DNA of 64,000 nt from Myxococcota bacterium (GCA_039028615.1 JBCCHT010000008.1:64001-128000); one strand, 5' to 3'; shown: positions 52,962 to 64,000, counted from the first letter of the stretch. A program made the numbers and translations. The notes: a model not told the origin generated them from the sequence alone.

Positions 52962-53095
52962 CGTCCTCGCCTTCACGACGGATGAGTCGAGCCGTTATCG
53001 ACATCGTGCTCGTTTTTTTTCAATCGGTCCCTTTGGCGAGTCGCCGTGGCGCAACGCTGTAAGTCGGGCGGTGTGAACGGCATTGGCACCAGCAA

Positions 53096-53851
53096 ATGCA
53101 CCGTGGATTCGTTCCCCCGCGTATTCCTTTCCTCTTTGTGCTCGCCCTGCCCCTGGTCACCGGGTGCCCCGACGACTCGCCACCACCCGCGGGAAGCGGG
53201 GAAGGTTCGACTTCGGCCGCAGGCGGCACCACTGGCCTCTCCGAGTCCCCGCAGACGACCGCCGGGTCGAGCAGTTCCGGGAATGCAGAGGGCAGCGGCA
53301 CCACGCAAGCAACCCTCGACGGTGGCAGCTCGGACGACACCACGGGCACACCTGGCACGATCTGCGAATCGACCTGCGAAAACTTGGCGAAGTGCAAGGA
53401 CGCCCCGTTCGCAGGGTGTGTGTTGGAGTGTGAGGAGTACTTCGAGCAAATCGCCGGGTTCGAGGACTGCGAGCAGGCGGCGTTGGACCTGTACGCGTGC
53501 TTCGGACAGGCCGAATGCGACGAGATCTACGGCGGGTGCCAACCGGAAATCGACGCGGAGTTTCTCGCCTGCGAAGAAGGCCTCGGCTGCACACAGTTCG
53601 TGAGCGGAGCCAACGACGGCAGCAACTGCCTCATCGAGCAGACCTGCGGCGACGGTCTCGAGCGATACCTCGAGTGCGAGGCGGGCACCTGCACCTGCTT
53701 CGACCAAGGGATGGACGTCGGCACCTGCCCGCAACAAGAGCTTTGCCTCGACCTCGCCGACGCGCAGTTCCCCGAGAGCCAGGCGCTGGTCGACGACTTC
53801 TTGATGGAGTGTTGTGGCTGGAAGCCACCCGTAGCCCCGATCGACCAGTGA
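53096..53851 (+). CDS. Cys-rich lipoprotein
   Basis: LVTGC lipobox, Ser/Thr/Gly linker, many Cys. Confidence 0.8.
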   Translation: MHRGFVPPRIPFLFVLALPLVTGCPDDSPPPAGSGEGSTSAAGGTTGLSESPQTTAGSSSSGNAEGSGTTQATLDGGSSDDTTGTPGTICESTCENLAKCKDAPFAGCVLECEEYFEQIAGFEDCEQAALDLYACFGQAECDEIYGGCQPEIDAEFLACEEGLGCTQFVSGANDGSNCLIEQTCGDGLERYLECEAGTCTCFDQGMDVGTCPQQELCLDLADAQFPESQALVDDFLMECCGWKPPVAPIDQ

Positions 53852-54158
53852 GACCCGGCTCCAGGTGTGCTCGGCCTCTCGTTCGCGCAGCGCGCGGCTT
53901 GCCGAGCCACCGCCCTGCCCCTAAGCTTCAGTTCGTCGGAGCCGCGGGGCGCCTGTGTTACCGCCCGACTCGTTTTCTCGACTCTCACGGTTTTTCGCAC
54001 GAGCCCACGCTTGTCGGACGCGACCATGAACGGTTGGACTTCGAGTCGGCGCACGCCCACCTCGCGTGGTGCGCACGGCCGACACTGCCTGCCTCTGCAT
54101 CCCCGATGCAGCCCTCGCGACCGCTGAGCGCTCGTGCGTTGGCCTACGAAGCCTCCGC

Positions 54159-54944
54159 ATGAATTCACGAGCGCCTCTTTCCCTTCTCGCCCTCCTGTCT
54201 CTCGCCGCCTGTCGCATCGACGCGGGCAACGTCGAGCCCACCAGCGGCAGCGCCGATAGCGGTACCGCGGGCACCACCGACGACGCCGCGACGGATGCCA
54301 CCGAACCCCCGGGCCCCGGCTCCAGCGAGGGCGGCGTCCAGACCTCCGACGGCAGCACCAGCACCGACCCCGACTCGGGCAGCAGCGGCGAGCCGCCTCC
54401 CGCCCCGCTCGAGTGCGAGGGCTACGACGAAGCCGACTACCCCGAAGAACCGGTCACGTTCACCATCGAGGGCGATCGGGCGATCATGGCCGGCTTCGTC
54501 GATGGCTCCACCCCCGGCCGCGTGCAGGACCTGCTCAGCGACCACCCCAACGTCCACACCATCATCATGCCCTTCGTGCCGGGCTCCGCCGACGACGAGT
54601 CCAACCTCGAGGCGGCGCTGGCGATCCACGCCGCGGGCCTGGACACCTGCGTTCCGAGCACGGGCCTCATCGCCTCGGGCGGCGTCGACTTCTTCCTCGC
54701 GGGAGCCCGGCGCTCGGCGGCCGAAGGGGCCCTGCTCGGCGTACATTCGTGGGCGGATGGCAACGGGACCGAGGGCGGCGACCTGCCCATGGACCACCCG
54801 GATCACCAGTTCTTCCTCGACTACTACGAGGAGATCGAGATCCCGGCCGAGTTCTACTGGTTCACGCTCGAAGCAGCTCCGGCCGCCGACATCCACTGGA
54901 TGACGGCGAAGGAGATGGCGACCTACTCCGTGCTCACGAAGTAG
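54159..54944 (+). CDS. lipoprotein with ClpP/crotonase-like domain
   Basis: LAAC lipobox; IASGGVDFFLAG..LGVHSW. Confidence 0.75.
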   Translation: MNSRAPLSLLALLSLAACRIDAGNVEPTSGSADSGTAGTTDDAATDATEPPGPGSSEGGVQTSDGSTSTDPDSGSSGEPPPAPLECEGYDEADYPEEPVTFTIEGDRAIMAGFVDGSTPGRVQDLLSDHPNVHTIIMPFVPGSADDESNLEAALAIHAAGLDTCVPSTGLIASGGVDFFLAGARRSAAEGALLGVHSWADGNGTEGGDLPMDHPDHQFFLDYYEEIEIPAEFYWFTLEAAPAADIHWMTAKEMATYSVLTK

Positions 54945-56199
54945 CGCCCGAGCCATTCGCCCCGCCGGCCGGCGGCGTCTCGTCGTCGCTGGCTGCCGAC
55001 TTGCTCGGGCCCTTCGTCGCCACGAAGGTTCCAGAGCTCACGGTCATCAGCGAGAGCATGGTCGCGCTGAACTCGGGCATCGCCAGCTCGGTGTAGGTCG
55101 TCCAGATGAACACACCGCCCAGGATGATCGTCCAGGCGAACATCTGGATGCGGCCGAGGCTCGGACCGTTCGCGTCGTAGAGGATGTCGTGAAAGAAGCC
55201 GCGGGTCACGTCGCGTAGCCGGGGCACGGCCGCGAGCTTGCGACGCACGCGTTCGAGTTCGCCTTCCTTGATCGCCCGACTCACCCCCACCGCGGACGAG
55301 CTCCCGTCGGTGTTCTCCGTGGTGGTGAGCGCGGCGATCTCGGTCTCGAGGTTGGCTTGCGCTTTCCCGAGATCGTCTCGGTCGCGATTTCTGGCATCCC
55401 GGCGGCTGTTGTCGAGCAAGTTCGACCCGAGGCTGGTGCCGGAGCTGACGGCCAACACCGCCAGGATTTTCTCGTTCAACGAGTTGTACTCGCCGAGCAT
55501 GGTCCACAAGAACACATAGGCCACGCTGACGATGTACAGCCAAAAAGCCATTTGGAAGCGGGAGAGACTATAGGGTCGCCGCTTCTGTGGGTCCTGAGAC
55601 GAACGCCCGTCGTTCCCGGGCTCCGCTGGATCGGCCGGGTCCAGCAACAAGCCGGTCTTTTTGATCGCGTACGCGAACAGCCCGGTGATGAAGACCCAGA
55701 ACGCGAGGAAGAGGAACCACTCGGTGCGGGGCAAGATCACCAGATCGAGCCTGACCCCCAGCAGTACGACTTCGCTCTTGCCGGTACCGAGCCCGACCGA
55801 GACGTTCCGCGATCGCGACGTCGGGCTACCCAGCAGCCCTTGCCACTGTTTCGCGTCGTTCTCGCCCCGCTCGAGCCTGAAATTGACGAGGCCGGTCTCC
55901 CGGTTGCACGACAGCGGCTTCACCCCAGACAACGGGAAGTGCTCGAGGACCAGCACGATCTTGCTGCAGTCGTCGTCGGCCCCGACGAGCGCCTTGCCGA
56001 GCGCCGTCTTCGCTCGAATCGAGACCACATCGCCCATCTTGGCCGCCTTCGGCGAGATTTGTTCCGTGGGCTCTTCGTCCGAGGGCGCATCGGCCGGCTC
56101 GGCGAATGCCGTGGTGCTCGGCCACCCGAGGGTGACCGCGGCCAGGACGATCAGCCAACCGAGGAGCATGCGGGGACGATGAAGCTTCGAGCGCGCCAT
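54934..56199 (-). CDS. membrane protein with duplicated SLxRxQ helical-hairpin module
   Basis: YSLSRFQMAFW and PSLGRIQMFAW, each followed by two TM segments. Confidence 0.75.
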   Translation of the reverse strand: MARSKLHRPRMLLGWLIVLAAVTLGWPSTTAFAEPADAPSDEEPTEQISPKAAKMGDVVSIRAKTALGKALVGADDDCSKIVLVLEHFPLSGVKPLSCNRETGLVNFRLERGENDAKQWQGLLGSPTSRSRNVSVGLGTGKSEVVLLGVRLDLVILPRTEWFLFLAFWVFITGLFAYAIKKTGLLLDPADPAEPGNDGRSSQDPQKRRPYSLSRFQMAFWLYIVSVAYVFLWTMLGEYNSLNEKILAVLAVSSGTSLGSNLLDNSRRDARNRDRDDLGKAQANLETEIAALTTTENTDGSSSAVGVSRAIKEGELERVRRKLAAVPRLRDVTRGFFHDILYDANGPSLGRIQMFAWTIILGGVFIWTTYTELAMPEFSATMLSLMTVSSGTFVATKGPSKSAASDDETPPAGGANGSGATS

Positions 56200-56391
56200 A
56201 CCAGAGCCGACGCGATGCACGATCGCGTCGACACGAGCATACGCCGATCGCCGATGAACCAACTACACGCCGCGCGGCTTCGATCGCGCCAATTCGAGTC
56301 CAAACGAGCGCTCCACCGGCTGCTTTCGCGCCTGCCTGCCGACTCCGTTCCGTAACGGGGCAACGCCCCGCTCATCGAGACCGTCGATGCT

Positions 56392-57027
56392 TCAGCGTCG
56401 CGCGCCCGGACCGAAGCGCTGCAGCAAGTCGCGCAGGATCCCCTCGGCCCAGCGCAGGCGAACGGCCTCGATCTCCGGGCTCTGCTGCACGGCCACGGTG
56501 ACCGCCTCCGAGTCGAACATGTGAAGCAGTGACAGCACGGTGGTGCCCACCTCCAGGCGGTCGGCCTCGGCGACATCGAACATCTGGTTCACGACGTCGA
56601 TGATCGAGGTCTCCAAGCGGAGCACTGCCCCTTCGGCCGCGACCCCGAGATCGGGGTGCGTGCGCGCGGCGGCGATGACCTCTCGCCACGCGGCCTGCAG
56701 CTCGGAGCGACTCAGCGCCCGCATCAAGGCCACGATGCGACCGAGCTGCCCGTCGATGTTGTCGGGGGAGACGCTCAGGGCGAACTGCCGAAAGGTGTCC
56801 ACGTTGCGCTGGCCGATGACGTCGACGGTCGCGACCAACAGCTCGATGCGGGTGTCGAAGTGCCGAAACAAGGCACCTTGGCTGAGGCCGGCGCGATCGC
56901 AGATCGCCTTGACCCCCGCCCCCGCGTAGCCGGACTCGGCCAGCACGTCGATGCAGGCGTTGATGAGGCGCTCGATGGTCGCGGCGCGGCGCTGCGCCTG
57001 CGTGCGTCGAGGAGTGGCGACGGGCAT
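56392..57027 (-). CDS. TetR-family transcriptional regulator
   Basis: RRTQAQRR..ICDRAGLSQGALFRHF. Confidence 0.92.
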   Translation of the reverse strand: MPVATPRRTQAQRRAATIERLINACIDVLAESGYAGAGVKAICDRAGLSQGALFRHFDTRIELLVATVDVIGQRNVDTFRQFALSVSPDNIDGQLGRIVALMRALSRSELQAAWREVIAAARTHPDLGVAAEGAVLRLETSIIDVVNQMFDVAEADRLEVGTTVLSLLHMFDSEAVTVAVQQSPEIEAVRLRWAEGILRDLLQRFGPGARR

Positions 57028-57032
57028 GGGGC

Positions 57033-58832
57033 TCAGACCGCCTGACGCAGAGAGGAGCCGACGCGGCTTCGGGTGGCGCGGGCGGGGATCTTCTCTCCGC
57101 GGCGCAGGAACTGGCCGTAGGCCCGCTCGCGACCCAAGCCGGGCACGTGGTGCCCCTCGGTGTAGATCAGCTCGCCGCCGACCAGGGTGGCCGTGACCGC
57201 GGCGTCGTTGCGCCGCACCATGCGACGCAGGCCGCCGTACACGTCGACGGGGGCCTCGTGATAGTCGTCGAGCGAGTCGTCCAGCCCGGCGGGATTGATG
57301 ATCGCGAGGTCGGCCCGATCGCCCACGCGGATGTGCCCGGCATCGATGCCGAGCCAGTCGCCGATCTCCCCCGTGACGCGGTGCACCGCCTGCCCCATGG
57401 GCAGCAGGGGCTTGCCGGCTTGCTCCGCCCGCAACATGGTGCGCAGGAAGTAGAGCGGGAAGTTGTAAAACGCCATGTTGCGCAGGTGCGCCCCCGAGTC
57501 GGCGAAGCCCACCTGAACCGCGGGGTGCGTGATGATGTCGTTGAGCGTGTCGGGCCGATGATTGGCGATGGTGGTCTTCCACCGCAGCGCCCGGCCGTGC
57601 TCCATCACCAGATCGAGGAAGGTGTCGACGGGATGCTCGCCGCGAGCATCGGCCAGCTCACCGAAGGACTTGCCCGCCAGCGCCGGATCGGGGGCGGACA
57701 CGATCTCGGCGTCGTGGAAGTCGCGCTGCCACACCCGGGGGCCAAAGCGCTTGTCGTAGTCCTTGCGGAAGCGGCGACGATACGCGGGATCGCGGAACAG
57801 GGTGTTGCGCTCGACCTGGTCGACCAGGTGCAGGGCCTCCTCGCCCGCCCCGAACTCCTCGAAGATCACCAGGTCGATGCCGTCGGCGTAGACCTCGAAG
57901 GGCATGGGCACGCTCTGCCAGCGTAGGTCGCCGCCGAAGAGCCGATTGAAGACCCCCGTCCCGCCGAGCACCGTGGCCGAGAGCATGGGGTTGGCCTTGG
58001 TGTCGGCCACCGTGATCAACGTGGACTTGAGCGGCTTACGGAAGCCGAAGCCTGCGCTCTCGATGAGGTAGAGGATCGCGTTGACCTTGGTGGTGATGTT
58101 GGGCGCCGACTGCAAGATGGCCTCGCGGCGCCGCAAGATCCGATGCAGGCGTCGATACTCGCCCCAGGTCGCGAAGGTGGAGGGCAAGGGCCGCGAGCGC
58201 ACCCGGTCGCCGCCGATCTTGTCCCAGGGGTTGGTCATGCACGACAGGCCCAAGAAGCCCGCGTCCAAGGCCTGCTCGAGCGCGCTCTCCATGGCCGCGA
58301 GCTGCTCACGAGTGGGGCGCACGCTCTTTTCGGTGGCCGCCTCGAGCCCCATCACCGCGGTGCGTAGATCGGAGTGGCCGATGAAGGCCATGACGTTGGG
58401 GCCGAGCGCGAGGGCGTCGAGACGCTGCGCGTAGTCGGCCGCGGTGTTCCACGCCTTGTCGGCCAAGGCCTCGAGCACGTGCTCGCGCGGGACCGCTTCG
58501 ACGCGAGAGAACAGATCGGCACAGTCCTCGGTCGACGAGTAGATGGTGCTCAGCGAGCACGACCCCACGCAGACGGTCGTGACCCCGTGCCGCACCGACT
58601 CCCCCAGCCCGGGCGCGAGCAACAGCTCGGCATCGTAGTGGGTGTGGTTGTCGATAAAGCCGGGCATCACCCAGCGCTCGGACGCGTCGATGACCGTGCC
58701 GGCCGACGAACGATCGAGCTGTGGCGCGACCTCGACGACATGCCCATCGACGATGCCGACGTCCGCTTGCCGCGGCTCGGCCCCGGTGCCATCGAAGTAG
58801 GTTCCCGAGTGAATGACGACGTCGTAGCTCAT
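57033..58832 (-). CDS. N-acyl-D-amino-acid deacylase family amidohydrolase
   Basis: DGTG, PGFIDNHTHYD, HGVTTV..GSC, DSGAH, GDRADL. Confidence 0.9.
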   Translation of the reverse strand: MSYDVVIHSGTYFDGTGAEPRQADVGIVDGHVVEVAPQLDRSSAGTVIDASERWVMPGFIDNHTHYDAELLLAPGLGESVRHGVTTVCVGSCSLSTIYSSTEDCADLFSRVEAVPREHVLEALADKAWNTAADYAQRLDALALGPNVMAFIGHSDLRTAVMGLEAATEKSVRPTREQLAAMESALEQALDAGFLGLSCMTNPWDKIGGDRVRSRPLPSTFATWGEYRRLHRILRRREAILQSAPNITTKVNAILYLIESAGFGFRKPLKSTLITVADTKANPMLSATVLGGTGVFNRLFGGDLRWQSVPMPFEVYADGIDLVIFEEFGAGEEALHLVDQVERNTLFRDPAYRRRFRKDYDKRFGPRVWQRDFHDAEIVSAPDPALAGKSFGELADARGEHPVDTFLDLVMEHGRALRWKTTIANHRPDTLNDIITHPAVQVGFADSGAHLRNMAFYNFPLYFLRTMLRAEQAGKPLLPMGQAVHRVTGEIGDWLGIDAGHIRVGDRADLAIINPAGLDDSLDDYHEAPVDVYGGLRRMVRRNDAAVTATLVGGELIYTEGHHVPGLGRERAYGQFLRRGEKIPARATRSRVGSSLRQAV

Positions 58833-58850
58833 CGATCGCGACCTCGAAAG

Positions 58851-58876
58851 AAAGATAGCAATCACTCTCTATCTTT
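58851..58876. promoter_or_regulatory. palindromic operator, candidate TetR site
   Basis: AAAGATAG-N10-CTATCTTT, 19-44 nt upstream of the deacylase-tetR operon. Confidence 0.6.
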
Positions 58877-58969
58877 TCAAACCAACGCTCAATGAGCGAC
58901 CAGCGACGAATAACAACGTTTTAGACCCCGTCAGCCGGAGCCCGGCGCCGTCCACGTAAAGTGGTCTGT

Positions 58970-59572
58970 ATGCGTAGCTGTCCCGAGTGCCACGGGTTCG
59001 TGCCCTCTGCCCAACGCGCGTGCCCCCACTGCGACCACACGTTGCCCACGGCACCAGCCGGCGAAGGCGGTTTCCTGAGTCGGGTGGGCGTGGGGCTCAT
59101 GGCCAGCTCGACCGCGATGACCTTGATGGCGTGCTACGGCGCCCCCTGCCCCGACGAAGATTCGTGCGGCGACGGAGGCAGCGCGGGGCCCCTCGAGGAG
59201 ACTTGCGACTTGATGACGCCGACCGAGGACCTCGGCGTCGACGCGCCCGTCAACGTCTCGGGCACGCTGACCACCGAGGGCAGCAACGTCGGCAGCTGCG
59301 GGGGTGCGGGCGGCGAGATGGTCTACACCTGGACGCCCCCCAGCGCGGGCACGTACACCATCTCGACCGAAGGCCAGCTCGACACCGTGCTCTACGTGCG
59401 CGACGCGGTGGCGGATGCCTGCGGCGTCGAGCTGGCGTGCAACGACGACGAGCCGGGCGCGACCACGTCGTCGCTCACCCTCGACCTGACCGGGGAACCC
59501 ATCGCCATCGTGGTCGACGGGTTCTCGGACGGGACCGCCGGCGACTTCACGCTCTCCATCCAGGGCTCGTAG
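58970..59572 (+). CDS. zinc-ribbon lipoprotein with C-Y-G motif and PPC-like domain; candidate radical SAM substrate
   Basis: CPEC..CPHC, hydrophobic stretch, LMAC-YGAP, then EMVYTW..DTVLYV..ELACNDD. Confidence 0.8.
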   Translation: MRSCPECHGFVPSAQRACPHCDHTLPTAPAGEGGFLSRVGVGLMASSTAMTLMACYGAPCPDEDSCGDGGSAGPLEETCDLMTPTEDLGVDAPVNVSGTLTTEGSNVGSCGGAGGEMVYTWTPPSAGTYTISTEGQLDTVLYVRDAVADACGVELACNDDEPGATTSSLTLDLTGEPIAIVVDGFSDGTAGDFTLSIQGS

Positions 59573-59582
59573 GCGCGCCACG

Positions 59583-60821
59583 GTGGCCGGTCGTCGCCTC
59601 GACGTCGTGGGGCAGGACTTCTTCCCCGCCTACGTGGTGTGGGAGCTGACCCTGCGCTGCGACCTGGCGTGCCGTCACTGCGGCTCGCGAGCGGGGGTTG
59701 CTCGACCCGACGAGCTCGACACCACCGAAGCGCTGGAGGTGGTGCAGCAGCTCGCCGAGCTGGGTGCACGCGAGGTGGTGGTGATCGGCGGCGAGGCCTA
59801 CCTGCACGATGGCTTCCTCGAGATCGTGGCCGCGCTCGCGAAGGCGGGGATCACCCCGGTGATGACCACGGGCGGACGCGGGGTCACGGCGCAGCTGGCC
59901 GCCGATATGAAGGCAGCGGGGCTCCAGCGGGTCAGCGTGAGCATCGATGGCCTCGAGCCGACGCACGACCGCATGCGCGCGTATCGGGGCAGCTTTGCCG
60001 CGGCCACGGCCGCCCTCGACCACTGCCGCGCCGCGGGCCTGGACATCACCGCCAACACCAACGTCAACCGGCTCAATCGCCACGACCTCGAGGGGCTCTA
60101 CGAGCACCTGCGGGACCACCACATCCGGGCGTGGCAGATCCAGCTGACCACCCCGCTGGGGCGCGCGGCCGACCGCACCGAGATGACCGTGCAGCCGTGG
60201 GACCTGCTGACGCTCGTGCCCACCATCGCCGCGCTCAAGGAGCGGGCCTTTGCCGACGGCATCGTCGTCATGCCGGGCAACAACCTGGGGTACTTCGGTC
60301 CCGAAGAAGCGCTGCTGCGATCGCCCTCGCGAGGCGGCCGCGACCACTGGCAGGGCTGTCAGGCGGGGCGCTTCGTGCTCGGCATCGAGTCGGATGGCGC
60401 GGTCAAGGGCTGCCCCTCGCTCCAGACCACCGCGTACGTCGGCGGCAACCTGCGAAGCCAGTCGCTCCGCGAGGTCTGGGACACCACGCCCGAGCTGGGC
60501 TTCACCCGTTCGCGCACGGTCGACGACCTGTGGGGCTACTGCCGCGAGTGCGTCTTCGCCGAGTCCTGCCTGGGCGGGTGCAGCTTCACCGCCCACGCGA
60601 TCTCGGGTCGACCCGGCAACAACCCCTATTGTCATTTTCGGGCGCGCGACTTTGCCAAGCGCGGACTCCGGGAGCGCTTGGTGCCCAGAGAGCCGGCCCC
60701 GGGACGCCCCTTCGACTACGGCGTGTTCGACATCGTGGTGGAAGCGATGGGCAGCGACGAGCCCAGCCTCGACGACGGAGCCCTGGTGCAGATCACCCGA
60801 CGGGCCCAACGACAGCGGTGA
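59583..60821 (+). CDS. radical SAM/SPASM maturase, PlpX/splicease-like
   Basis: YVVWELTLRCDLACRHCGSRAG, IGGE, SIDG, GNNLGYFGP, CQAG..DGAVKGCPSL, CRECVFAESCLGGC, NNPYC. Confidence 0.88.
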   Translation: MAGRRLDVVGQDFFPAYVVWELTLRCDLACRHCGSRAGVARPDELDTTEALEVVQQLAELGAREVVVIGGEAYLHDGFLEIVAALAKAGITPVMTTGGRGVTAQLAADMKAAGLQRVSVSIDGLEPTHDRMRAYRGSFAAATAALDHCRAAGLDITANTNVNRLNRHDLEGLYEHLRDHHIRAWQIQLTTPLGRAADRTEMTVQPWDLLTLVPTIAALKERAFADGIVVMPGNNLGYFGPEEALLRSPSRGGRDHWQGCQAGRFVLGIESDGAVKGCPSLQTTAYVGGNLRSQSLREVWDTTPELGFTRSRTVDDLWGYCRECVFAESCLGGCSFTAHAISGRPGNNPYCHFRARDFAKRGLRERLVPREPAPGRPFDYGVFDIVVEAMGSDEPSLDDGALVQITRRAQRQR

Positions 60822-60871
60822 GTTCCCCCCTTCGCTTGCGCGCGCCGTTGCCCCCGCGTCACACTGATCCG

Positions 60872-62248
60872 ATGAGACGGGTCCTGGTGGTCGGCTTCAC
60901 GGCCAGCCTCGGTGTCGGCTGTGGCTCCGATGCACCGACCACGGCCGGAGGGACCGGCGACACGGGCGAGGACACCACCGCGAGCGAGCCGGCCGAATGT
61001 GCCGAGGACCTCGATTGCCCCGACGAGCGGCCCCAGTGCAGCGAAGGCGTGTGCCTGGCCTGCGCCGATCTCGAGTCGTGCGAGGCCCACGACCCGGCCA
61101 CCCCCGCCTGTCACGAGCCCTCCGGTCGCTGCTTGCCCTGCCTCCCCGACGGCGACACCTGCTCCGGCGACATGCCCCACTGCACGGGCGCGGGCCAGTG
61201 CGTCCAATGCCTCGATTCCACGCACTGCCCCGACAGCGCCTGCAACCGCTTCACGGGGACGTGCATGCCCACCGACTCCGTCTACTGGGTCTTCAACTCC
61301 ACCCAGGACGAGTGGCCCGATCCCGACGGCACCGTCAACGCCCCCTTCGGCAGCATCCAGGAGGTCCTGCAGACGGTGGGCGACGAGCAGGTAACGATCT
61401 GGATCGCCGGGTCCGCGTACATCGAGGCGATGGGGATGACCATCGAGGGGCCTCGCACCGTCGCGATCCGGGAGTTCGTCGAGCCGACCTTCGGGGACGA
61501 TGAGCTCGATCCGCTGTTCGGGGGTGGATTGGCGGCGATGACCGTGACCGGTGGTGCCCGGGTCATCGTCGAGGAGGTCGACGTCACCGAACACGAGGAC
61601 GTGGCCATCGACTGCTTCGGCGCCGACCTGTGGCTGGTGAACCTGGGACTCATGGGAGGCACGGGCACGGGTCTGCGTGCCGTCGACTGCGACGTGCACC
61701 TGTCGGGGGTGCATGTCGGCGGCAACGACCGCGGGGCGATCACGACCTCGGGCAACACCACCCTGTCGATCGTCAACTCGGTGATCGGGCTCAACGGCGT
61801 GCCGCTGGCCACCGAGGGCACGGCCCTCGAGCTGCGCGGAGGGACGGCCGAGATCGTCCACTCCACCATCGCCGCCAACTACGGCGAGCCCGATCGCGCG
61901 TCGGTGCTCTGCAGCGGGGCCGCGCTGCGCATCCACAACAGCATCGTGACCAGCTTCGATGCGTCCATCGACTGCCCGCAGGCCCAGGTCGATCACAGCG
62001 TGGTCGATACCCCCTCGCTGTCGGGCGACGGGGTGTTCATCGCCGACTTCAACCCGCAGTGGTTCAACAGCTTCGGAGCCGGCCGCACGCGAGTCCGGTG
62101 GCCGACCCTGGCCGACCCCGAGTCCTCGCCGATGGCCGGGGTCGCGCAGTGGGCCCTGGGCGATCCCCTGACCGACATCGACGGCGACCCCCGCCCCGCC
62201 GTAGATGGCTCGGAGGACTACGCCGGCTGTGAGCGGCCGCCTCTGTGA
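60872..62248 (+). CDS. Cys-rich lipoprotein with beta-helix-like C-terminal domain
   Basis: GVGC lipobox; Cys repeats; DGTVNAPFGSIQE; NSVI/HSTI/NSIV; DIDGDPRP. Confidence 0.8.
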   Translation: MRRVLVVGFTASLGVGCGSDAPTTAGGTGDTGEDTTASEPAECAEDLDCPDERPQCSEGVCLACADLESCEAHDPATPACHEPSGRCLPCLPDGDTCSGDMPHCTGAGQCVQCLDSTHCPDSACNRFTGTCMPTDSVYWVFNSTQDEWPDPDGTVNAPFGSIQEVLQTVGDEQVTIWIAGSAYIEAMGMTIEGPRTVAIREFVEPTFGDDELDPLFGGGLAAMTVTGGARVIVEEVDVTEHEDVAIDCFGADLWLVNLGLMGGTGTGLRAVDCDVHLSGVHVGGNDRGAITTSGNTTLSIVNSVIGLNGVPLATEGTALELRGGTAEIVHSTIAANYGEPDRASVLCSGAALRIHNSIVTSFDASIDCPQAQVDHSVVDTPSLSGDGVFIADFNPQWFNSFGAGRTRVRWPTLADPESSPMAGVAQWALGDPLTDIDGDPRPAVDGSEDYAGCERPPL

Positions 62249-62341
62249 GCCTGGCTTGGTACGACAAAAAACTCCGTTTTCGTGATCCGCTCGGTGCGGA
62301 TTGGGAACAGGACCATCGACCCCCAACGACGGACCCTTCCC

Positions 62342-63541
62342 ATGAAGCACCAATCCCTATTCCTGCGCTCCTCCACCGCAATCCTCGGCATGTCGCTCCT
62401 GCTCGGAGCCTGCGGCGAGGAGCCCAACGACGATGCAGCGGGACTGCAGGCCGACGAAGAGATCATCTACGAACTCCTCCCTGGTGATTACCCCTACCGC
62501 GACGGCGACCGCACCATCTGCGCCGTCTACGAGGCCGACCTGGGCGATGAGATCGACCAGCGCACCGAGCACTACCTCATCGAGCGCATGAACGAGGAGC
62601 TCCAGGACGACGAAGAGTGGGCCGCCTTCTCCGGTTTCGACACCGTGGAGACCTGCGACGACGCCCGCGAATATCAGGCGCTGCGGCTCGAGTATGAGCA
62701 GACGCTTCCGATCGTCTTCAACCCGGAGCGCGGGATGTACCCCGAGGAGCCGGGGGCCGACCTCGGCGACGGCGTCGACAAGATCGGCGAAGCCACGGGC
62801 GAGTCCAACAACGACGCAGTCGTGCGGATCAAGCTGTCCGCCGCCTCGTCCGGCGCCTGCTCGGGCACCATGATCAACAACCGCACCGTGCTCACCGCCG
62901 CGCACTGCTTCCCCGCCGGGCAGCGCCCCATCGCCCTGCGACGCGAGGAAAACGGCAGCCTGCAGAACTTCGTGACCAAGGACGCCACCGTCTACAACCA
63001 CATCGACTACACCGGCGTGGGCGACCCGGGCGACGACATCGGCCTCATCGTGTTCGACACCCCCATCGCCGGGGTGGACAACGGAGCCGACACGCTGCGG
63101 GTGCTGACGTCGGGGATCGACGCGGGTGACAACATCATCTTCCTCGGCTGGGGCATCGCCGATCACCAGGGCACGGGCGCGGGCATCCTCCGCTACGGCC
63201 ACGCCGTCGTGGACTGGGCCAGCTCCCGCCACTTCACCGACACCGTGCTTCAGGGCGGGCCGCGGGCGTGCAAGCAGGACTCGGGCGGACCGGCTCGACT
63301 CAACCGCGGCTCCCATGGCGTGAGCTACGACCTCGTCGGCGGCATGGTCTCCGAGGGTGAGCTGGGCAGCCCCTTCTGCGGCTACCCCGGGCACAAGGTG
63401 CGCTGGGCCGCGACCGAGAGCAAGATCGAGTGGATCGAGACCCGCTTGCTCATCCACGGCATGAACCTGACCCCGCAAGATGCCGGCACCGCGTGCCACC
63501 GTTTCTCGCAGAACGGCCACACCTACATGCGTTGCTGGTAA
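62342..63541 (+). CDS. trypsin-like (S1) serine protease lipoprotein
   Basis: LGAC lipobox; CSGT, TAAHC, DIG, QDSGGP catalytic triad. Confidence 0.92.
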   Translation: MKHQSLFLRSSTAILGMSLLLGACGEEPNDDAAGLQADEEIIYELLPGDYPYRDGDRTICAVYEADLGDEIDQRTEHYLIERMNEELQDDEEWAAFSGFDTVETCDDAREYQALRLEYEQTLPIVFNPERGMYPEEPGADLGDGVDKIGEATGESNNDAVVRIKLSAASSGACSGTMINNRTVLTAAHCFPAGQRPIALRREENGSLQNFVTKDATVYNHIDYTGVGDPGDDIGLIVFDTPIAGVDNGADTLRVLTSGIDAGDNIIFLGWGIADHQGTGAGILRYGHAVVDWASSRHFTDTVLQGGPRACKQDSGGPARLNRGSHGVSYDLVGGMVSEGELGSPFCGYPGHKVRWAATESKIEWIETRLLIHGMNLTPQDAGTACHRFSQNGHTYMRCW

Positions 63542-63548
63542 AGATGTC

Positions 63549-63589
63549 GATGTCCCCTCGCCGACCGAGGCGAGGGGACATCCCCTTTT
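63549..63589 (+). terminator. intrinsic terminator
   Basis: gatgtcccctcgcc-gaccga-ggcgaggggacatc perfect 14-bp stem then ccctttt. Confidence 0.75.
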
Positions 63590-63621
63590 CGAATCGCCTC
63601 GACTGAAGAAAAGAACGACTC

Positions 63622-64000
63622 GTGCTTCGACCTCGCCTCGACCCTTGGATTTTCTCTGCCTGCTTGCTGTGGAACGTCGGCTGCGGCGACGACGGTAGTG
63701 ACGACGCGGCATCGACCGCGGCCGGATCCACCTCGATGTCCGCGGCCGAGGGTGGCAGCGGAGGTACCGGAGCGTCGGACCCGACCGGTGGCAACCAGGC
63801 CACCAGCGACGCGATGACCAGCGATGGCGGGGCGACGGGCAATGCCAGCGACGCGACGGGCAACCCGGGCGACGAGACCGGCACCGAGCTCGACTGCTCG
63901 GAGTGCGGCCTCCCCGGCTGCTTCAGCCAGCTCACGGGCGGCCAGTGCGTCTGCGAAGCGGGCTACGAGTGGGCCGACCCCACCGACCCCATGAACTTCC
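63622..64000 (+). CDS. Cys-rich lipoprotein, truncated by window edge (not in the ORF track)
   Basis: Own translation from GTG: VLRPRLDPWIFSACLLWNVGC-GDDGS.. linker ..CVCEAGYEW. Confidence 0.7.
   Translation, partial: MLRPRLDPWIFSACLLWNVGCGDDGSDDAASTAAGSTSMSAAEGGSGGTGASDPTGGNQATSDAMTSDGGATGNASDATGNPGDETGTELDCSECGLPGCFSQLTGGQCVCEAGYEWADPTDPMNF

Follow-up and report, generated by a model that had tools for sequence, protein, structure and literature searches.

A Myxococcota radical SAM enzyme of splicease descent is paired with a zinc-ribbon precursor whose predicted lipid-anchor cysteine is the X of a putative Cys-Tyr-Gly splice motif

Can a single cysteine be both part of a splice site and the lipid anchor of an exported protein? 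This question is raised by a two-gene unit in a stretch of 64,000 nucleotides of DNA from a Myxococcota bacterium (GCA_039028615.1, JBCCHT010000008.1:64001-128000), which was analysed as a whole and is called the window in the following. It is part of contig C8 in a genome of 12.3 Mb, whose close homologues are from Myxococcota. Gene 1 (58970-59572, plus strand) encodes a predicted precursor of 200 amino acids with a zinc ribbon, a signal-like stretch, a lipobox Cys-Tyr-Gly (CYG) and a PPC-fold cargo, and gene 2 (59583-60821, plus strand, GTG start) encodes a radical S-adenosylmethionine (SAM)/SPASM enzyme of 412 amino acids. The gap of 10 nt between the two genes, noticed in an initial annotation made from the sequence alone, was verified, and their GC3 values (G+C at third codon positions) are 0.92 and 0.89, respectively. 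The initial annotation had proposed that the enzyme is a splicease, which excises tyramine from an X-Tyr-Gly (XYG) motif, and that the X of this motif is the very cysteine that would otherwise be lipidated. The results presented here make it probable that gene 2 splices the CYG of gene 1, and it is considered only slightly less probable that the cysteine of this motif, C55, is a lipidation site.

The assignment of gene 2 was based on profiles, a tree and sequence identities. Both Pfam profiles, Radical_SAM and SPASM, matched above their cut-offs. Alignment and sequence revealed the CX3CX2C motif (C26, C30 and C33; region 59640-59696), and Pfam and alignment delimited a SPASM domain (60354-60632) with seven cysteines (259, 277, 320, 323, 329, 333 and 350). 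The three motifs that had been read as a splicease pattern were recovered at residues 20, 232 and 276. Gene 2 scored 468.8 bits with TIGR04103, which we take to be equivalent to the PlpX entry IPR026482, and 409.4 bits with TIGR03913, while the values for Ahb, NirJ, MftC and PqqE did not exceed 152 bits. The match to TIGR03913 stopped at profile position 396 of 477, and with TIGR04133 only 140.3 of the 425 bits needed were reached. Gene 2 is 42-49% identical to plasmid proteins annotated as members of the TIGR04103 and TIGR03913 families, compared with 26-31% to MftC, PqqE and NirJ. Eighteen loci with TIGR04103 matches above the cut-off were taken from 16 of 301 genomes; they are situated beside XYG precursors with a nif11 leader. 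These 18 nif11-type enzymes share 252 conserved columns, 165 of which are identical in gene 2 (about 50% overall identity to the 18). In the complete locus collection described below (140 enzymes, the nif11-type included), conservation of at least 95% was found for 97 columns. A sequence search of solved structures (PDB) yielded no splicease, the best matches being SkfB and PqqE with E values of about 1e-16, and a search of a phage collection gave no match.

A phylogenetic tree was calculated from 56 rows, including five outgroup rows, under LG+G4 after five long rows had been dropped; PqqE and MftC were not part of it. Gene 2 grouped together with nif11-type and GDL-type enzymes and apart from Ahb-like SPASM proteins (branch support 100/99), and within this group it belongs to a clade of its own (100/99), which is separate from both types. 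An earlier tree had been rejected, because its outgroups were too distant for rooting. Judged from profiles and phylogeny, gene 2 is a splicease-like enzyme by descent and a member of neither of the two named families, TIGR04103 and TIGR03913.

The proposed partnership was addressed with a neighbourhood survey, for which loci were gathered with the enzyme as query. The best 80 among 325 relatives were taken, together with others and with 30 loci from the order, where a match was present in 69 of 73 genomes; removal of 12 duplicates from 152 loci left 140, and the 94 enzymes with at least 56% identity were used as the clade set. The search pattern for precursors at these 94 loci required neither a Cys nor a YG after the ribbon. 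An open reading frame (ORF) with a ribbon was found at 83 of the 94 loci, and 81 of the 94 had a CYG, showing that the pairing, which recurs at loci picked by the enzyme alone, is not due to chance. In 88 ribbon ORFs an uncharged run is followed by a Cys, and 84 of these read CYG; seven further ribbon-like ORFs lacking such a Cys look spurious. Six of the 11 blank loci have less than 400 bp of upstream sequence (two of these show a cut ACYG ORF), one was missed by the pattern, and four are empty. The precursor is encoded upstream of the enzyme in 45 cases, divergently in 32, downstream in six and convergently in one, and the hosts, which belong to several phyla, include Sorangium, Plesiocystis, Corallococcus, Sericytochromatia and a leptospire. 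A reverse search that started from the precursor was positive in at least 16 of 251 genomes, which is a lower bound with 24 candidates scored each, and a splicease-type gene was present in 15 of the 16 stretches fetched in this way (three of the 16 repeat earlier loci). The pair of genes 1 and 2 is thus a member of a widespread family and not a singleton. Two outcomes that would have spoken against the initial annotation, a grouping of the enzyme with Ahb-like SPASM proteins and a CYG that is not retained beside homologues, were not obtained. The invariance of ACYG in the precursor alignment and the CYG in 115 of 115 cluster representatives are circular and were not counted as conservation. 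At one locus (L061) an ORF downstream of the enzyme, next to the CYG system, seems to resemble a DUF692/MNIO protein.

In gene 1, CPEC-X10-CPHC occupies residues 4-21 (zinc ribbon of the GF subtype with C4, C7, C18 and C21; 58979-59032), and 16 uncharged residues (39-54; h-region at 59084-59131, weakly hydrophobic) end with L-M-A at lipobox positions -3 to -1 and are followed by C55-Y-G-A-P. C55-Y56-G57 is encoded at 59132-59140, and, of the coordinates given initially for the motif, 59132-59146 holds for CYGAP, but LMA is not inside this range and maps to 59123-59131. The CYG is the sole YG of gene 1, which has four Tyr in total, and 77 of 91 precursors likewise have a single YG. The remainder of the protein (59204-59569) is a beta-sandwich of the PPC or collagen-binding type with six Cys after C55. 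Its Pfam match is weak (E 0.052), but its fold is clear, as the initial annotation had suspected. Folding of the single sequence was poor (pLDDT 50.5), and an alignment-based model was used in its place (mean pLDDT 83.7), in which ribbon and sandwich are confident and residues 33-55 are low. The best structural match of the sandwich was the PPC domain of collagenase (Z 12.3, root-mean-square deviation 2.6, 102 residues). This folded domain is present, as claimed, but it does not define the system: the cargo after the CYG is exchangeable, the total length of the precursors varies from 62 to 451 amino acids, and the 27 precursors that were scanned carry MopE-like, DUF4215, PPC or disordered regions, so that PPC was rejected as a defining part.

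In agreement with the initial annotation, the region from 53000 to 64000 contains no ORF of 20-130 amino acids with a YG. Gene 1 has no match in NCBIfam (neither a Nif11 or NHLP leader precursor family nor TIGR04134), and the Pfam scan found no DUF1843. The ORF list of the window contains no obvious candidate for a small gene of the PlpY or RiPP recognition element type, a result obtained without a profile search aimed at PlpY.

Several lines of evidence argue for a role of C55 as lipid anchor. Taken by their sequences, the clade precursors conform to the pattern of lipoproteins processed by signal peptidase II, i.e., a basic n-region, an uncharged h-region and L-x-[AG]-C: Lys or Arg precedes the h-region in 84 of 84 precursors, the uncharged run has 12-23 residues, and the boxes read LMAC (61), LSAC (11), LAAC (9) or MMAC (3). 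The genome of the window encodes Lgt (5 copies), LspA (4) and Lnt (2). The number of Cys after the CYG Cys is even in all 91 precursors (75 with and 16 without Cys), and after clustering of the cargos at less than 40% identity it is even in all 37 clusters with Cys, of 45 clusters. In the same genome even numbers were found in 309 of 366 lipobox candidates and in 1729 of 3409 other ORFs (51%), and a further 115 cluster representatives comprised 84 even, two odd and 29 without Cys. This indicates that the cargo is exported and disulfide-bonded, and that the Cys of the CYG is the unpaired one. In four of the 88 clade precursors the YG is located 7-17 residues downstream, with Leu, Ala or Pro as X, and the Cys remains at the end of the h-region. 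Related and paralogous precursors have an ordinary lipobox at the same place and a YG at a distance of 5-130 residues. Cys occupies the X position in 84 of the 88 clade precursors, compared with none of 42 distal and none of 45 nif11-type sites. Canonical LAAC or LSAC boxes before the YG occur in other enzyme lineages. On the tree, CYG-paired enzymes occur at three positions, and in two of the three groups the box is the canonical LAAC. The hypothesis that all of these enzymes form a single clade was rejected (p-AU 1.9e-5), with the group defined after inspection of a tree.

The initial annotation had further suggested that the zinc ribbon serves as a leader or recognition element, and this view gained support from two sides. 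The four ribbon Cys are invariant in 82 of 82 aligned precursors. First, a complex of the enzyme with residues 1-69 of gene 1 was modelled and reached a score of 0.75, compared with 0.00 for the best of three controls; the mark for this score is reached by 116 of 157 solved and two of 215 mismatched pairs and is rough here, where own alignments were used. The runs agree in at least 90% of the contacts, with a pLDDT of the partner of at least 66. Ribbon residues 7-10, 12, 15 and 19-20 are predicted to contact residues 238-243, 255, 324-328, 352 and 356 of the enzyme, so that model and alignment mark residues 238-243 within the segment GNNLGYFGPEEA (60276-60311) as a predicted ribbon-binding patch, and residues 48-63 of gene 1 touch strands of the enzyme barrel. 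The model thus supports binding of the ribbon to the enzyme, as a prediction. Second, related ribbons are fused to GDL-type enzymes. TIGR03913 is matched by 29 of 82 precursor heads (best E 1.6e-6) at profile positions 426-460, which is the C-terminal tail that gene 2 does not have. The ribbon is part of this tail in GDL-type enzymes of Azospirillum and Aureibacter, and it is N-terminal in an enzyme of Tropicibacter. With a profile of the RH-type ribbons, the enzyme-fused ribbons reached 28-39 bits and surpassed 98-100% of 283 generic ribbons; the same profile ranked the nine precursor-type ribbons of the genome first among 99. The GF-type profile scored the fused ribbons no better than generic ones (36-65% of the 283 reached scores as high), and a direct homology of GF ribbons was rejected. 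The link between substrate and enzyme ribbons is therefore indirect, because only the RH-type profile separates fused from generic ribbons. The top matches of a search at the level of 50% clusters were discarded as 35 generic multi-ribbon proteins, and differences between GF and RH types at contact residues 241, 324 and 355 were not accepted as evidence of co-evolution, because kin share them. It is tempting to speculate that the ribbon is a portable splicease activator, which evolution has placed either on the signal peptide of the substrate or on the enzyme; the entire reading including this element is put forward tentatively, with somewhat more doubt than confidence. The Tropicibacter enzyme, which carries its N-terminal RH-type ribbon, is encoded on a plasmid (L168:2180-3802) without an obvious precursor, in a cluster with a second radical SAM protein, a phosphotransferase, a trypsin-like peptidase and an M23 peptidase.

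Based on these results the following pathway is proposed. In the cytoplasm the N-terminal zinc ribbon would dock on the SPASM side of the enzyme, as leader or activator comparable to the PlpY and RhaA helices of known systems, in agreement with the complex model, and tyramine would be excised at C55-Y56-G57. The weak hydrophobicity of the signal would suit export after cytoplasmic modification and may allow post-translational export. Tat export as a general rule was rejected, with RR in 23 and a Tat-like pattern in seven of 84 precursors. After export, Lgt would add diacylglycerol to C55, LspA would remove ribbon and signal, and Lnt would acylate the amine. The product would be anchored in the membrane and carry an electrophilic ketoamide immediately at the lipid head, with the disulfide-bonded cargo, here of the PPC fold, behind it. 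A surface protease trap is suggested by the finding that spliceotides with a ketoamide are inhibitors of serine and cysteine proteases (PMC11626197); such a trap or a covalent handle would be the most likely role. As a chemical variant, the thioether, which is beta to the ketone and next to an enolisable carbon, could undergo elimination, with release of the diacylglycerol and formation of an enone warhead, but this is rather improbable.

A number of points weigh against this proposal. Regarding the enzyme, both profile scores are below the curated cut-offs (468.8 versus 725 bits for TIGR04103 and 409.4 versus 591.75 for TIGR03913), and the family was assigned via profiles and annotated relatives, with no characterised splicease sequence compared directly or included in the tree. 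Four loci with about 4 kb of flanking sequence have no precursor, including that of the closest enzyme (L001, 74% identity). Regarding the splice site, a characterised site with Cys as X was not found in the parts of the literature covered. Regarding lipidation, the even Cys parity shows export and not lipidation, Lgt, LspA and Lnt would have to accept a ketoamide at +1, and the complex model puts lipobox residues inside the enzyme, so that the conservation of the lipobox may reflect recognition by the enzyme; known sites read A-M-Y-G (PMC11414181). The signals are long, with the Cys at position 44-69, and unusual in comparison with 619 lipobox candidates of the genome (median hydropathy 1.56 versus 2.02; only 10 of the 619 have Met at -2, and only 8 have Tyr at +2), although this background scan is a rough control, because it missed both CYG genes of the genome.

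Which fate of C55 do the data favour? The net splicing reaction joins the carbonyl of Tyr to the carbonyl of X and keeps the side chain of X (PMC10533398). The thiol and the amide nitrogen of X would thus be untouched by the excision, and splicing and lipidation need not exclude each other. Excision would leave the sequence Cys*-Gly, and among the lipobox candidates of the genome no residue is more frequent at +2 than Gly (139 of 619). A precedent for cytoplasmic modification followed by lipidation is DybA (PMC13056109). That both modifications occur on the same molecule and yield a lipid-anchored ketoamide is regarded as an even call. Of the two outcomes that the initial annotation had offered, a ketoamide lipoprotein or a switch between splicing and lipidation, the first is compatible with the net reaction, and nothing favours the second. 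A switch would mean that splicing at C55 blocks lipidation or cleavage by LspA, dividing the protein into an uncleaved inner-membrane pool and a released lipoprotein pool. Two pathways do claim the same residue at 81 of 94 loci, and the backbone change caused by splicing would fall on the +1/+2 junction, which is read by Lgt and LspA. However, the intact thiol and amide nitrogen and the favourable Cys*-Gly argue against a block, and the inspected loci have neither a regulator nor a second enzyme as a recurrent neighbour of the pair, which makes a switch unlikely. It is similarly unlikely that the protein is spliced and never lipidated, with LMAC as splice context, the uncharged stretch as uncleaved anchor or type I signal, and the free thiol beside the ketoamide as working group. 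The weak hydrophobicity, the late Cys, the rare Met at -2 and the modelled position of residues 48-63 inside the enzyme would fit such a protein, and nif11-type sites, too, mostly have Ala or Pro at X-1 (33 of 45). It would not be expected, however, that the Cys stays in place where the YG moves (4 of 88), that canonical LAAC or LSAC boxes precede the YG in other enzyme lineages, or that paralogues with a distant YG retain the lipobox at the same position.

Many SPASM enzymes make thioethers, e.g., SkfB and the ranthipeptide synthases, and the clade could have switched to a sulphur reaction, i.e., a thioether or a Cys-Tyr link, that needs a Cys next to the Tyr. This would explain the Cys at X in 84 of the 88 clade precursors and its absence from all 87 other sites, and a few barrel positions do differ from nif11-type enzymes (F335 versus W). 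In contrast, the 97 columns conserved across all 140 enzymes, the Leu, Ala or Pro as X in four precursors of the same clade, and the retention of Tyr and Gly exactly as in splice sites speak for unchanged chemistry, so that a sulphur reaction is quite improbable. That gene 1 is an ordinary lipoprotein and the enzyme acts elsewhere, as the four of 94 loci with full flanks and no precursor and the ribbon precursors that the genome encodes far from any enzyme might suggest, is very improbable in view of a pairing that persists over four gene arrangements and several phyla, an enzyme met in 15 of 16 precursor-first stretches, a complex score of 0.75 against 0.00, and the lack of another short YG ORF nearby.

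The preferred reading, splicing at the CYG of a lipoprotein-type substrate, was compared with known systems. The type I systems PlpX/PlpY/PlpA and PcpXYA (TIGR04103) share the cluster Cys, the barrel residues and an XYG in the neighbouring gene. In contrast, the enzyme of the window belongs to a separate clade and scores below the cut-off, there is no nif11 leader, a small Y gene was not seen, and the substrate is a protein with an export signal, a folded cargo and Cys as X. PlpX is assigned to IPR026482 (PMC11002830). Binary systems without a Y protein are known, and types II, III and V have been named (PMC11414181, PMC11626197). Of these, RhaXA, RcsXA and RasXA likewise have two components and a leader with an enzyme-binding element, which is an alpha-helix there and a zinc ribbon followed by a lipoprotein-type signal here. 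An activator can also be supplied by fusing PlpY or the RhaA leader helix to the enzyme (PMC11414181), and the ribbon fused to GDL-type enzymes mirrors such fusions. The GDL-motif/DUF1843-associated radical SAM enzymes (TIGR03913) are 42-47% identical to gene 2, and their C-terminal extension holds a related CxxC-CPHC ribbon. Their ribbon is thus on the enzyme and their partners are DUF1843 peptides of 54-70 amino acids without signal, whereas in the window the ribbon is on the substrate. In Bacteroidota, a radical SAM/SPASM gene (TIGR04133) also adjoins a lipoprotein with YG-x-P near the anchor (TIGR04134); in the one example examined, EYGTP follows about ten residues after the lipobox Cys. 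However, the enzyme of the window is only 28% identical, the Bacteroidota system has no ribbon, and its X is not the anchor Cys. The DAG-RiPPs DybA/DybH (PMC13056109) are also modified in the cytoplasm, by an MNIO enzyme, and then processed by Lgt, LspA and Lnt, but the enzyme class differs, the modification is far from the lipid Cys, and the main text on them mentions neither radical SAM enzymes nor splicing.

The genome of the window contains five further intact splicease-type genes, which are 47-54% identical, and one broken copy (C6:70097-71848, C1:417118-418248, C1:5447-7798, C42:17612-18739, C2:294057-296016 and C80:11306-12833). Four of the five intact enzymes adjoin RH-type ribbon lipoproteins with a distal KYG, AYG or IYG or without a YG, and for the gene on C42 no partner was found. 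A second GF-type CYG precursor without an enzyme nearby (C26:121475-121876) is a candidate in-trans substrate of gene 2, and a similar orphan precursor was found at L150. At L097, L101 and L103-L105, precursors with a CYG at the lipobox and additional distal KYG sites are located beside enzymes of another clade. Three ribbon lipoproteins (C1:6677-7798, C1:671923-672618 and C30:88140-88715) have Tyr-Ala-Gly where relatives have Tyr-Gly-Gly, and from their sequences they are possibly an XYA splice variant; the partner peptides of GDL-type enzymes also show Tyr-Ala or Tyr-Met.

In the window, the pair is preceded by a divergent gene of the amidohydrolase family (57033-58865, minus strand), and the only site found in a promoter scan is on the minus strand and faces this gene. 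A Cys-rich, lipoprotein-like gene with one NYG at residue 337 follows 51 nt after gene 2 (60872-62248, plus strand); it is probably not part of the system, because the downstream neighbours differ at other loci. The next ORF (62282-63541, plus strand) resembles, as read by eye, a lipoprotein trypsin-type serine protease (LLGAC and TAAHC motifs), and it is situated 1.5 kb from the predicted protease-inhibitor system.

Spliceases are represented by 27 characterised and 939 predicted systems (PMC10533398), which come from a survey (Scott 2022) that covered 3418 candidates in 189 genera (PMC10849128), and according to a 2022 review the end products of spliceotide systems in their native hosts are still elusive (PMC9811515). 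Spliceases, lipoprotein-type RiPPs (peptides that are made by the ribosome and modified after translation) and a curated radical SAM/lipoprotein pair with a YG near the anchor (TIGR04133/TIGR04134) are thus already known; the overlap of the splice site with the predicted anchor Cys and the portable ribbon are distinctive. In the literature searched, which did not extend to Scott 2022 and Morinaka 2018, no paper was found on Cys as X, a ribbon leader, lipidated spliceotides, or spliceases together with lipoproteins. The splicease survey of Scott 2022 may already list the type, since the pair is present in the cultured strains Sorangium cellulosum So ce56, where the enzyme is the sole splicease-type match at E 1e-60, and Plesiocystis pacifica SIR-1.

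If the CYG precursors underwent ordinary splicing without lipidation, they would constitute one further type of spliceotide. As it stands, the CYG family predicts both the location of the product, at the lipid head in the membrane, and its route, with signal peptidase II as leader protease. If this is true, lipoprotein RiPPs would be extended to radical SAM chemistry, the system would probe the tolerance of Lgt, LspA and Lnt for a non-alpha backbone at +1, and the 25-residue ribbon would be a new recognition tag for protein splicing.

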